A stretch of DNA of 31,665 bases from an archaeon. GTDB taxonomy: Archaea > Nanobdellota > Nanobdellia > Pacearchaeales > GW2011-AR1. The notes under the pieces are model-generated. The model saw only the letters and a program-made list of their open reading frames with translations. It made no database searches and was not told the DNA's origin. Shown here in pieces: positions 2,553 to 23,569 of the stretch (its first letter is position 1; every line of letters starts with the position of its first letter). The position numbers were made by a program, and so were the translations under genes. The stretch spans positions 1-31,665 of the forward strand of contig JBAXMY010000001.1 in assembly GCA_037134055.1 (NCBI GenBank). The letters are read 5' to 3'.

Positions 2553-2573
2553 TTGCATTAACTAATTAAATAC

Positions 2574-3260
2574 ATGAAAAAGAGTGTTCTTCTTGTATGT
2601 ATCATACTTTCTCTTTTAACTCTAAGTCTCTTTTCCAATTTTGCTCATGCAGCTACCACCCCCTCATCTTCCCAAGAGCTGATTTCCAATCAGCTTGGAA
2701 TAGATCCTGCATCCATACCTCAAAGTCCAGAAGACATTAAAGACAAATATCTTAACCAAGAATGGGGGAAAATTATTGACAGCACACCCATAATTGGTCC
2801 AGTTAATATATTTCTAAAAACAAATGACTCCGCCCTATTTGTAGAATACTTCCTTTTTGCTGAAGCATATACTTTCACACTAACGTTCATTCTTATTTTT
2901 GTTTTCTGGCTCTTCGCAATTACATTAACCTCTGACTTGCTGAGAGCTTCTGGATTCCTCAAAGGTGGAGTTTCGCTGTTTGTTGGACTCGGAGTAGCAG
3001 TTATAATCGCACAAATCGGATTACTAAGATTCATCACCTCTGGAATTATCAACTTCATAACTAGGCAAGAAAATGTATGGTGGAGAATAGTTCTCTGGAT
3101 AATCATACTTGTAGCGATCATAGCATTCTACTATCTGAAAAAACTTATAGCAGATTACCTACTTAAGGCAAGAACTGAAGATCAGAAAGCATCCGTAGAA
3201 AGAAGGGTGAAGAAAATCGAGATAACTGAGGAAAGTCAGAAAAAAGCAGAGAAATTATAA
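2574..3260 (+). CDS. Membrane protein: signal peptide, short external domain, three TM helices, charged tail
   Basis: 228-aa ORF beginning MKKSV...FAHA; hydrophobic segments in the C-terminal half. Confidence 0.85.
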   Translation: MKKSVLLVCIILSLLTLSLFSNFAHAATTPSSSQELISNQLGIDPASIPQSPEDIKDKYLNQEWGKIIDSTPIIGPVNIFLKTNDSALFVEYFLFAEAYTFTLTFILIFVFWLFAITLTSDLLRASGFLKGGVSLFVGLGVAVIIAQIGLLRFITSGIINFITRQENVWWRIVLWIIILVAIIAFYYLKKLIADYLLKARTEDQKASVERRVKKIEITEESQKKAEKL

Positions 3261-20129: not shown

Positions 20130-21004
20130 TTATTTCCTTTTGAAATAGATAAAACTAGCTATCAAACCAATTGTAAATAAAATTCCGCCTGTCAAATTAC
20201 TCGATGTTTGATTTAAACTGGCAATTACATTACCAGTTATATTTGAAGATAAAAAAAATAAACCTGCGATGAGTCCTGTAACGGCAATTATAGAAAGAAA
20301 GTGAGATGCTAAATTTGCATTTTTCATTCCCACCTTGCGCTTTCTTTCATCTATCGCCTCTTTCATTCTTCTAACTTGTAACAAACCACTGTCTATTCTT
20401 TTTTCTAGTTTTTCATTCTCTTTTCTTCCATCTGCAGTTTGTGGTAAAAGATTAATCGTGTTTATAGCATGTTCATAGCAGTATAGCGCTTTGTTAAGGC
20501 GTCCTTGATCCATGTAACGTTCTCCAGCATAACAATAGAAGCCTGGTGTAGATTGGCTTTTTTTCATTTCGAGTCTTTGGGCTTCGACGAGGTCGTTATC
20601 CGCACCTTTTGTTTTTTCGAGTTTTTCAAGAATTCTTCTAAAGAAACCTTTTTGTATCCCAACTAGCTCATCCGAACTACTGACATTATACGTAGGATTA
20701 GCACTGTCTAAATCATGGTAGCTATGCCTTCTATGTTCTGCTCTTCGAAGCTCTCTTCCAAGTTTTTGTCTGTCATAAAGGTTCAATTCCTGCGGGTCAA
20801 TTGATTTTAAATGGTTCACGGCATTATCTGTAAACTCTTGTGAAAAATATGGCATATCTTTGGCCTCTTTAATTAATTTCCTAACTCGAGGAGATAACCT
20901 TTTTTCTTTTTTATTCATCTCTTTTATAGCAATCATCGATTTAAATTCTTTTGCAAGCGCGCCGTCGGGTGGGGGTTGGTAAATACTGAGCCAGCCATAA
21001 ATTC
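20073..21004. repeat. Inverted repeats flanking the 20130 gene
   Basis: GAATTTATGGCTGGC (20073-20087) and its exact reverse complement (20990-21004); GACGGCGC (20105-20112) and GCGCCGTC (20959-20966); GGGTGGGGG present as a direct repeat at 20097 and 20967. Confidence 0.85.
20130..20918 (-). CDS. Helical (TPR-like) protein with C-terminal two-TM NITGNVI tail
   Basis: AATTTAAA at -29 favours ATG 20918 (MNKKEK). YAGERYMDQGRLNKALYCYEHAI is TPR-like. The tail resembles that of 6295..7266. Confidence 0.85.
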   Translation of the reverse strand: MNKKEKRLSPRVRKLIKEAKDMPYFSQEFTDNAVNHLKSIDPQELNLYDRQKLGRELRRAEHRRHSYHDLDSANPTYNVSSSDELVGIQKGFFRRILEKLEKTKGADNDLVEAQRLEMKKSQSTPGFYCYAGERYMDQGRLNKALYCYEHAINTINLLPQTADGRKENEKLEKRIDSGLLQVRRMKEAIDERKRKVGMKNANLASHFLSIIAVTGLIAGLFFLSSNITGNVIASLNQTSSNLTGGILFTIGLIASFIYFKRK

Positions 21005-21292
21005 CTATTCGTTCTAGTGCGATTTTGTTTAAGCATGATTAGACGTCAGAGCGTCGTCCGCTTTCCGTCCGCTTAAACGAAGCGAGAAACTAAAGCTCGA
21101 AAGTTTTTCTTGCAGGAAGAAAAAGCCGTAGGCTAAATTCTACTTTCGGTTAATCACCATTAACCGCCCTTTTGATGACAAATTTAAAATCTAAAGGCGC
21201 CGATGCCGAGCGCGTTCGGCGCTTCGCGCCTCACTTACTATTGAGGCTATTTTTTTTTGACGTCACAATAGCCAAAAACTATTTTTCTTTTT
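20937..21292. other. Structured GC-rich non-coding flank (right), MITE/REP-like or ncRNA
   Basis: Hairpins at 21104-21124, 21124-21134, 21147-21166, 21205-21220, 21218-21230, 21229-21246 and 21245-21273; CGTCCGCTT tandem at 21055 and 21066. Confidence 0.6.
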
Positions 21293-21598
21293 TTACATGT
21301 ACATTACAAGGCCAGTCATAGCAGCATAACCTAAAATTCTTAGAGATTCAATCTTCAAGAGATTGATTCTTCTATGCCTTGTTTGAGCAAGGCTCTCCTC
21401 ACTAACATTGTTTCTTTCTATTGGAGGTGACCAAAGATGAGAAGTCATATACATTGGTAAAAGAAGAGCAGCAGGATCCATATTCAATTCATAATCTCGA
21501 TTGTATTCATTCACAGTTTCTGCAAAATCCTTTGATTTTTTACTTACAACGCCTGCTAAAACCATGTTCTGAGTTATTGTATCGAACAAACTTGCCAT
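21293..21598 (-). CDS. Small hypothetical protein with hydrophobic C-terminus
   Basis: The track start at 21610 is TTG. ATG 21598 has TTTAAATA at -29. Confidence 0.7.
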   Translation of the reverse strand: MASLFDTITQNMVLAGVVSKKSKDFAETVNEYNRDYELNMDPAALLLPMYMTSHLWSPPIERNNVSEESLAQTRHRRINLLKIESLRILGYAAMTGLVMYM

Positions 21599-21619
21599 GA
21601 AAGTTGTCAAAAACGGGTA

Positions 21620-21627
21620 TATTTAAA
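21620..21627 (-). promoter_or_regulatory. TATA box for 21293..21598
   Basis: TTTAAATA at -29..-22. Confidence 0.7.
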
Positions 21628-21680
21628 CCTTTATTCTAAGAAAACAACAACCTTAAAACCCCACATTTCTCATTAGAATT

Positions 21681-23120
21681 ATGTTAGACTCCAGGATACT
21701 AAATGCATTGACAATCCTAGCTAGAAAGCTCAAGAAATACAAATGGGTACTTATAGGAAGTACGAATCTCGCTGTTCAAGGCGTGGATGTTGCAGCACAC
21801 GACCTAGATATCATGATAGACAGGACTAACATGGAATTCGTTGCACAAGATCTGAAGGAATATGAAAAAAAAGAATTCGAATTCATGGAGAAGGGTCCAT
21901 TCAAGGGATATTACTCAGAATATGAAATAGATGGTGTCAAAGTAGAGATCATGGTTGACTTTGAAATACTTCAAAACAACAACTGGGAAAAATTAAATAC
22001 GAGATTGGAAGAACCAATCATGGTAAATCTTCGTGGATTACTAGTTCCCTGCTCAAGAATAGAAGAACAGCTCAGAGGATATAAACATCTCAATAGAGAC
22101 AAGGACCAAGAGAAAATTGCCAAACTTGAAAATTTCCTTGCCAACCGATCTGAGAAAAAACACAAGTATGAAATGAAGCCTCTTTTCGAGCAAAGAATGC
22201 AAACACTCCTGTCGGATCCTGCTGATTTTGAAAAATTCAAAAAGATTATTCACATGCCTACTCGAAACTTCATAAGATGTAATAATCTCAAGATAACACC
22301 CGATGCATTAATGGAAAGGTTAAATAAAAAGTGGAAAGTTGTTCAACCATTCTCCGATTATCCTGAAATAATGATAATTGAATCGAATTTAGACCCTGGA
22401 GAGCTAGGTTCTTCCCTTGAACACCTTCTTGGATACTACTATGTCCAAGAAATTTCTTCAATGCTATCAATTCTAGCTTTAGATCCAAAACCTGGCGAAC
22501 TTGTTCTAGATATTTGTGCCTCTCCAGGTTCCAAGACTTCCCAAATGGCTGCACGCATGGAGAATCAAGGAACAATAATTGCAAATGATTTTAAAATGGA
22601 CAGAATTGCAATCCTTTCCGCAAACCTGGAACGTTGTGGTGCCATGAACACAATCATAACAAGAAATGATGGCGTGCAATTATGTGAACGCCTGGCCACT
22701 TCATTCAAAAAGTTTGATAAAATACTTCTTGACGCTCCCTGCTCTGGAGAAGGAACCCTGCGTTCGTCCGTTAAAACATTCCTCATGTGGAATCCTAAAG
22801 TTGTGAAGAAATTCGGTCGTCAACAGAAAAAGATGATGGCTTCAGCACTCAAATGCCTTAAAGTTGGAGGAACTCTTGTTTACAGCACTTGCACTCACGC
22901 TCCAGAGGAAGATGAATCAGTAGTAAATTTTGCTCTACGCAATTTTCCAGTTAAACTTGAGACCATTGCATTGCCTTTGAAATGCAGGCCAGGCATTTCT
23001 AAATGGGGAGATGAAACCTTTTTGCCAGAAATTGGTAAATGCTGTCGTATCTATCCCCAGGATAACGATAGCGAAGGATTTTTTGTATCAAAGTTAACAT
23101 TGTTGGAGGAAATAAAATGA
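21681..23120 (+). CDS. Fusion: N-terminal nucleotidyltransferase plus RsmB/RsmF/NOP2-family RNA m5C methyltransferase
   Basis: aa 1-155 contain WVLIGSTNLAVQG...DLDI...VEI. aa ~162-479 contain QEISSML, LDICASPGSKT, LLDAPCSGEG and YSTCT, so both catalytic Cys are present. Confidence 0.9.
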   Translation: MLDSRILNALTILARKLKKYKWVLIGSTNLAVQGVDVAAHDLDIMIDRTNMEFVAQDLKEYEKKEFEFMEKGPFKGYYSEYEIDGVKVEIMVDFEILQNNNWEKLNTRLEEPIMVNLRGLLVPCSRIEEQLRGYKHLNRDKDQEKIAKLENFLANRSEKKHKYEMKPLFEQRMQTLLSDPADFEKFKKIIHMPTRNFIRCNNLKITPDALMERLNKKWKVVQPFSDYPEIMIIESNLDPGELGSSLEHLLGYYYVQEISSMLSILALDPKPGELVLDICASPGSKTSQMAARMENQGTIIANDFKMDRIAILSANLERCGAMNTIITRNDGVQLCERLATSFKKFDKILLDAPCSGEGTLRSSVKTFLMWNPKVVKKFGRQQKKMMASALKCLKVGGTLVYSTCTHAPEEDESVVNFALRNFPVKLETIALPLKCRPGISKWGDETFLPEIGKCCRIYPQDNDSEGFFVSKLTLLEEIK

Positions 23121-23569
23121 GATATCTGAAAAGCAGTGAGAAAAAAGAGATAATGACTGGACTGAAAGAACAATATGGTATAGAAGAAGTTCCCTATTTG
23201 ATATTTGAAGGTGGAAAAGAGAAAACTCGTGCTTTCTCCGGCTCTCTTTCCACAGAAGAGATAGAAGATCTCTGGCAAATTGCTAGAGTTGAGATAATCG
23301 GCATTTACGTTCTAAAGAAAGAAGGAGATTACCGATTAAGTTTCGATGCAACACAGCTTCTTGCAAATAGAATCACAAAGGGAGTTATAGAAATCAATTA
23401 TGAACAACTTAAAAAATGGATGAAAGGTGAAGACTTGGATATAGTTGCACCTAAAGGAACCTATGTTATCAAATACGGGAATGACTTTTTAGGTTGCTGC
23501 AAATCCAATGGCGAAAAGCTTTTCAACTACGTTCCCAAAGATAGAAGAGTGAGAAAGGAGCTAAGATGA
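23117..23569 (+). CDS. RsmF C-terminal / NIP7-like PUA-type RNA-binding protein
   Basis: ATGA overlap with the methylase; WMKGEDL...YVIKYGNDFLGCCK...LFNYVPKDRR resembles the RsmF C-terminal domain. Confidence 0.7.
   Translation: MRYLKSSEKKEIMTGLKEQYGIEEVPYLIFEGGKEKTRAFSGSLSTEEIEDLWQIARVEIIGIYVLKKEGDYRLSFDATQLLANRITKGVIEINYEQLKKWMKGEDLDIVAPKGTYVIKYGNDFLGCCKSNGEKLFNYVPKDRRVRKELR

Follow-up and report, generated by a model that had tools for sequence, protein, structure and literature searches.

A minimal nucleotidyltransferase apparently captured in frame by the leaderless promoter of an archaeal RNA methylase

An uninterrupted open frame of 479 codons, running on the forward strand from the ATG at 21681 to the TGA at 23118-23120 of the contig sequence, joins a small nucleotidyltransferase (NTase) to an RsmF/NOP2-type m5C RNA methylase in an archaeal genome. 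The reading that we favour, with moderate confidence, is that an accessory NTase was captured by the promoter of the methylase, that an evolutionary accident is the likeliest origin of the fusion and that the two halves are probably independent enzymes. The window, by which we mean the whole stretch of DNA that was analysed (31,665 nucleotides), is an entire contig of a genome of approximately 1 Mb (G000) that comprises 151 contigs and is 68.6% complete. Close homologues of the methylase bear the names Nanoarchaeota and Pacearchaeota, which places the archaeon in DPANN. This one metagenome-assembled genome is the source of the fusion protein, whose cluster has a single member. No second copy of the 479-aa protein was on record when other contigs were queried for exact matches, a scan of metagenome contigs with the junction pattern, allowing 4-8 bases at its run of adenines, gave no matches, and a search of metagenome contigs with back-translated residues 1-170 found no relatives. 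The fused frame (21681-23120) would be translated as one chain from a predicted leaderless mRNA; the mass computed from its sequence is 54.9 kDa, in line with the product of ~55 kDa anticipated in the preliminary description of this DNA.

The N-terminal half (residues 1-156; 21681-22148, forward strand) is a complete TM1012-type minimal NTase that has both its own first residue and its natural C-terminal end but no stop codon. It matched the Pfam family PF10706 (ANT(2'')-like NTase) at residues 18-148 with 26.3 bits against a cut-off of 21, and it carries the Pol-beta signature (hG[GS], DxD and a third acidic residue) as IGS at 25-27, D41-L-D43 and E89. Across 59 NTase homologues, G26, S27, D41 and D43 are invariant or nearly so, and every position of this kind in the family is retained in the fusion. 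The complete minimal NTase with a GS...DLD...E arrangement that had been noticed from the letters alone was thus borne out. Its family, fold and GS, DxD and E motifs are common to TM1012 of Thermotoga maritima, a structural-genomics 'putative nucleotidyltransferase' (PDB 2EWR, 2FCL and 4HX0) that was matched in the PDB by sequence with an E value of 6e-15. An AF2 model of the NTase part, made with the 59 homologues, had a pLDDT of 96 and superposed on 2EWR with a TM-score of 0.86 and an rmsd of 1.7 Å at approximately 30% identity. TM1012 stands alone as a protein of ~155-165 aa, and so do nearly all of the 597 homologues detected, whereas the NTase half described here runs on into a methylase. 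Free-standing homologues start at the same first residue and end 2-8 aa past the FL motif. The source genome has one copy of the NTase, and the GC content, GC3 and codon usage of this part are like those of host genes, so the recency of the insertion cannot be dated from composition.

Beyond TM1012, the small Pol-beta-type NTase fold is common to ANT(2'')-Ia, the lincosamide enzyme LnuA, MenT1 and MenT3, and FKRP, at TM-scores of 0.5-0.65 and identities of 13-17%. For the aminoglycoside enzyme ANT(2'')-Ia, the Pfam score is marginal, the identity 13-14% and the TM-score 0.5-0.56, and for the tRNA-targeting toxins MenT1 (TM-score 0.62-0.65) and MenT3 the likeness is at the level of the fold, with 13-14% identity. 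Fold similarity (TM-score 0.55-0.65) is the sole link to the MenT/AbiEii toxins; an adjacent gene of the antitoxin type that accompanies toxins of this kind was not found among 85 neighbours of 23 NTase homologues, and PADLOC gave no defence-system match below an E value of 0.001. The NTase domains of fukutin and FKRP have been modelled with TM1012 as the template (PMC2794190). We treat the resemblances to ANT(2'')-Ia, LnuA, MenT and FKRP as leads to a substrate class only, and not as evidence of membership. The substrates of the nearest characterised NTase relatives are mostly small molecules, and the fold neighbours ANT(2'')-Ia, LnuA and FKRP would likewise point to small-molecule or glycan hydroxyl groups rather than to RNA.

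Residues 158-479 constitute an intact RsmF/NOP2-type m5C RNA methylase, as had also been proposed for this frame. An RsmF-type N-terminal domain (PF17125, RsmF_N; residues 169-257; 22185-22451, forward strand) was detected with 37 bits and is followed by the m5C RNA methyltransferase catalytic domain (PF01189, RsmB/F; residues 265-472; 22473-23096, forward strand), which scored 165 bits against a cut-off of 27 (E 2e-48). TIGR00446 was matched with 264 bits (cut-off 210). The motifs ASPGSKT at 280-286 (SAM motif I), DAPCSG at 351-356 and STCT at 402-405 are kept, and both catalytic cysteines, in the PC of motif IV and the TC of motif VI, are present. The closest solved structure is that of Escherichia coli RsmF/YebU (2FRX, E 3e-53), and the PDB matches, which also include T. 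thermophilus RsmF (3M6U), P. horikoshii PH1374 (1IXK) and M. jannaschii Trm4 (3A4T), range from 3e-53 to 1e-41. The methylase half has the catalytic PF01189 domain, the SAM motif and the cysteines in common with both RsmF/YebU, which methylates 16S rRNA at m5C1407, and the archaeal NOL1/NOP2/Sun proteins, and the N-terminal domain in common with RsmF. However, it scored 242 bits with the RsmF equivalog model NF008898, below the cut-off of 588, and it also fell below the cut-off of the tRNA-C49 equivalog model; its substrate is therefore not assigned from these models. It is the only PF01189 gene detected in the source genome at its present completeness.

In RsmF proper, the N-terminal, catalytic and PUA-like domains lie on one chain, but here the PUA-like part is a separate RNA-binding domain gene of the RsmF type (23117-23569, forward strand; PF13636), which matches positions 367-469 of the 480 in RsmF and whose start overlaps the methylase stop as ATGA. 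It is followed by a methionine aminopeptidase gene (MetAP; PF00557; 23566-24585, forward strand), the last conserved gene of a methylase-PUA-MetAP backbone that recurs in relatives in synteny, with PolB upstream and CDC48 downstream. Both downstream junctions, methylase to PUA and PUA to MetAP, are ATGA overlaps, with GGAGG and AGGAG upstream. The split of the RsmF-type methylase is general in this archaeal order, in which the PUA-like gene (~150 aa) usually comes directly after the methylase gene; it is also separate in L003, L005-L007, L009-L013 and L019, often displaced by inserted genes.

The junction between the two halves, S157-E158 with the methylase N-terminal tail KKHKYEM up to Met165 (22149-22175, forward strand), reads FLANR-SE-KKHKYEMKPLF and stays in frame over a run of six adenines (A6) at 22155-22160. 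A tail of the form K-x-(H/W/Y)-K-Y-E-M-K-P is coding in many methylase homologues that start further upstream, with counterparts such as PEKKWKYEM, ERKKWKYEM and RKHKYEM. NTase homology stops at about R156 and homology to the methylase tail begins at E158, so that a hidden stop and start would not fit between them. A full-length NTase frame is thus joined in frame to the tail of the methylase, and no more than two residues serve as a linker. No flanking direct or inverted repeats that would mark the insertion of a mobile element were found, only short matches at the level of chance. One candidate target-site duplication, 22150-22164 against the 5' leader of G018, was rejected because of its high A content and weak match (17 of 27 bases).

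The sequence ahead of the NTase resembles what relatives have ahead of the methylase. The core of the methylase operon promoter, the 16-mer CAACAACCTTAAAACC (21645-21660, forward strand), ends 20 nt ahead of the ATG at 21681 and includes a TATA-like TTAAAA from 21653, at -28 of this ATG. The closest relative, G018, whose methylase shows 71% identity, has this 16-mer unchanged 21 nt ahead of its methylase ATG. L019 has a version that agrees in 15 of the 16 bases, at a distance of 20 nt from the ATG. In both G000 and G018, the exact 16-mer is present as a single copy. Since both the 16-mer and its spacing match the methylase promoter of relatives, the promoter ahead of the NTase is the methylase's own. 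At L019, a 52-residue in-frame methylase tail begins right after the same promoter. Judged by these matches, the NTase lies behind the leaderless promoter of the methylase and ahead of the methylase body, and the suggestion that an insertion had captured the methylase promoter gained support both from this and from the relatives, which have no NTase at this place.

The leaderless character of the promoter follows a pattern seen throughout the genome. Across the starts of 784 long frames in G000, TATA-like hexamers peak sharply at -29 to -27 of the start codon (389 against a background of ~30), so that about half of the frames have one there. This geometry indicates that G000 is largely leaderless, and the ATG at 21681 conforms to it. 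The preliminary description had placed a TATA ahead of 21681 and none ahead of the internal Met165 (22173), and this held: at Met165 we looked for both a TATA-like hexamer at -29 to -27 and a Shine-Dalgarno (SD) motif, and neither was present. Approximately 89% of internal ATGs likewise have neither signal. GGAGG-type motifs in G000 occur mainly ahead of internal, ATGA-coupled genes (43 of 79); in our own test, ~46% of the ATGA junctions had no SD-like motif.

The sequence of events that we propose is that a complete TM1012-type NTase frame without a stop codon landed between the leaderless promoter and the N-terminal tail of the methylase. Transcription from the captured promoter would begin at or near the ATG at 21681, and translation from this 5'-terminal AUG would give a single polypeptide of 55 kDa with two catalytically intact, probably independent enzymes, of which the methylase half would still work with its separately encoded PUA subunit. 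In a genome with leaderless first genes, a gene dropped behind the promoter would deprive the next gene of its initiation, and in-frame read-through alone would keep the only detected RsmB/F-family methylase of this genome expressed. We infer that the two activities are independent and that selection is the reason for the open frame.

To determine how widely the fusion and its parts occur, we searched for both halves, together and separately. Apart from the fusion itself, the list of the 120 best methylase homologues consists of 119 proteins of 312-446 aa without PF10706. Of 40 related genomes, 36 gave a methylase match that begins near residue 123-181 of the query and lacks the NTase. A 156-aa NTase ahead of the N-terminal tail was seen in no other methylase examined. 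When residues 1-160 were searched among proteins of 263-839 aa, the query alone was returned, and a search with the NTase family profile among longer proteins gave no other protein with PF01189. The search for the same architecture elsewhere, which the preliminary description had advised, thus gave no second case among the 120 best homologues, the 36 relatives or the profile searches, and the NTase-RsmF fusion appears to be a singleton as far as our searches reach, among 5.8 billion clustered proteins.

The NTase itself is sparsely distributed. An exhaustive search of 1.8 billion cluster representatives yielded the 597 homologues, nearly all of 150-170 aa, the best being only 47% identical. 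The few long ones have a class I methyltransferase (P0160), TPR, GNAT, NUDIX, HAD or M29 domain as the partner, and these partners are mutually unrelated. Of 400 genomes of the order, 22 carry the NTase, each time in a frame of 145-220 aa; it was thus found in ~5% of related genomes, as against ~90% for the methylase. In G019 and G021 it lies on another contig than the methylase. No gene family occurred more than twice among the 85 genes neighbouring the NTase. The patchy occurrence and the lack of conserved neighbours mark the NTase as a floating accessory gene.

Several of its settings can be described individually. In G019 (L014, G019:C69, 854-2456), the NTase homologue starts 1 nt after the stop of a PF01170 gene on the same strand, which encodes an RMKL-like methyltransferase of 381 aa. 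In G369 (L036, G369:C26, 1929-5842, reverse strand), a distant homologue of 142 aa with PF10706 is a separate gene between the methylase and MetAP, preceded in the operon by an 80-aa frame, an NYN-domain gene and a 174-aa frame, in that order. The free-standing NTase of G021 (L015, G021:C6, 985-2560) adjoins a tyrosine recombinase gene (281 aa), with a GC-rich element that contains GCGCTTCGGGGC ahead of the NTase; the same 12-mer lies before the NTase of G110 (L025, G110:C4, 2888-2899). This shared 12-mer hints that some NTase copies may travel as cassettes.

A different protein was found fused to the methylase at the same place. In P0024 (446 aa, from a contig of the Logan assembly SRR23086397), an unrelated part of ~110 aa joins the methylase at the same junction, there RKHKYEMKP, and this part has free-standing homologues in G169, G280, G016 and G397, in frames of 130-172 aa (locus L040, 1456-1866). 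P0024 represents a second capture, independent of the first, of an entire small frame. The N-terminal tails of methylase homologues vary from 1 to 125 aa, and 16 of the 120 begin directly at MKPLF. The variation of these tails, the 52-residue tail at L019 and the P0024 fusion speak for an accidental capture that is specific to this lineage. The methylase-PUA-MetAP operon is itself often interrupted, by an MNT/HepT pair, an NYN nuclease, a 2'-5' RNA ligase, a methyltransferase or small frames, and is a hot spot for unrelated small cargo genes. Cargo was seen at L004, L006, L009, L012, L019 (4603-5389) and L036 (3359-4839) and on the contig of P0024.

These observations raise a broader idea, which we hold as tentative and on balance improbable: the first codons of the leaderless methylase gene could be a recurrent capture site for promoterless accessory frames, beside GC-rich cassette arms. 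By this doubtful account, captured frames would be expressed from the resident promoter as N-terminal fusions, and the site would be, by analogy, a counterpart of attI and Pc in integrons. With the same reserve, the NTase and the 110-aa protein of P0024 might then be two snapshots of one process.

It is possible, in principle, that the fusion is instead a selected bifunctional enzyme, in which the methylase and its PUA subunit bring the NTase to tRNA or rRNA and nucleotide addition is coupled to m5C methylation. We regard this as unlikely. The active-site motifs of both halves are intact, MenT1 and MenT3 are among the structural neighbours that follow TM1012, G369 has a homologous NTase as a separate gene in the methylase-MetAP operon, the G019 homologue directly follows an RNA-methylase-like gene and P0160 unites an NTase homologue with a class I methyltransferase, all of which would fit such an enzyme. 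However, the architecture was found once within the reach of our searches, the NTase is rare in related genomes and the methylase common, the neighbours of the NTase are not conserved and its rare fusion partners are mutually unrelated, the MenT likeness is one of fold and comes with no conserved MenT-like partner gene, and the operon takes in many unrelated cargo genes. The earlier proposal that the fusion couples RNA or nucleotide tailing to methylation was not upheld by the single occurrence of the fusion, the patchy distribution of the NTase, its changing neighbours and the mostly small-molecule substrates of its nearest characterised relatives. A fusion that is unique while relatives encode two genes had been named beforehand as an outcome that would speak against the proposal, and on this outcome the coupling idea fails, whereas the open frame stands. 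Two points can nevertheless be held against an accident: an insertion that is precise at both ends of the frame is unusual, and the separate NTase homologue in the same operon of G369 could hint at a functional tie.

The remaining alternatives concern what is made from this locus. A sequence or assembly artefact, in which there are two separate genes and a single-base error masks the NTase stop, could have arisen by a TAG read as GAG at codon 158 or by a run of five adenines (A5) read as A6; either way, we judge it very unlikely. The fusion is a singleton in a fragmented, incomplete metagenome genome, and with A5 a TGA at 22174-22176 would terminate the NTase, overlapping the ATG at 22173 in an ATGA like those of the two downstream junctions; given how many such junctions in G000 have no SD motif, its absence does not exclude a coupled start there. 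Against this, the conserved tail EKKHKYEM does not change frame across the run, there is no space for a stop and a start between about R156 and E158, and a chimaera could have arisen only through two exact joins within a collinear locus; the lack at Met165 of the TATA and SD signals used elsewhere points the same way, with the missing SD being weak evidence. It is also conceivable, but quite unlikely, that the frame is real and the main product is a methylase-only protein, made by internal initiation at Met165 or by cleavage, with an NTase that is dispensable and possibly decaying. A protein starting at Met165 would be a normal methylase, as the 16 homologues that begin at MKPLF indicate, and singleton fusions of this kind look short-lived. 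However, Met165 has neither a TATA at -29 to -27 nor an SD motif before it and in this is like most internal ATGs, and the conservation of all invariant or nearly invariant NTase positions, together with the confidence of the predicted fold, argues against decay.

The resistance protein AAC(6')-Ie/APH(2'')-Ia and the RNA repair pair Pnkp/Hen1, which combines end-healing with methylation, recur in many organisms, and coupling has been shown for them. They are like the NTase-methylase fusion in having two independent transferase activities on one chain or in one operon; the fusion differs from them in having been found once and in showing nothing that would point to a shared substrate. We regard it as a one-off architecture of two known families, with no indication of cooperation between the two activities, which should not be annotated as a new bifunctional RNA-tailing and methylating enzyme. 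It shows clearly, at the level of the sequence, one way in which fusion proteins can come about in leaderless genomes, and the second capture in P0024 suggests a perhaps repeatable route to domain accretion in DPANN archaea. The fusion may also serve as an experimentally convenient handle on the TM1012 family, of which a crystal structure became publicly available in 2005.

Upstream of the methylase promoter lies a conserved GC-rich non-coding element (GCGCTTCGCGCC ... ATTGAGGCTATTTT; 21219-21253, forward strand), which we describe here as context. In the form GCGCTTCGCGCC ... ATTG[T/A]GGCTATTTT, it occurs at this place in four genera: at 21190-21260 of the present contig, at 2790-2850 (reverse strand) in G018 (L003), at 2567-2601 (reverse strand) in G009 (L004) and at 2770-2834 at L019. 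Between the element and the promoter there is a different small frame in this contig than in G018, and none in G009 or at L019; the element is a possible boundary of a neighbouring cassette region. The small frame in this contig (21293-21598, reverse strand; 101 aa) had no match among the families of Pfam, NCBIfam and PADLOC. Under the TATA rule its start is the ATG at 21598 and not the TTG at 21610, as TTTAAATA on the reverse strand is its correctly spaced TATA; 'tatattta' at 21619-21626 is the divergent promoter of this frame and not that of the methylase. A further frame on the reverse strand, with its start region at 20918-20936, encodes a TPR/membrane protein of 268 aa; a TTTAAA at -29 indicates that translation begins with the second ATG (20918, MNKKEK...), which lies 6 codons into the longest frame.
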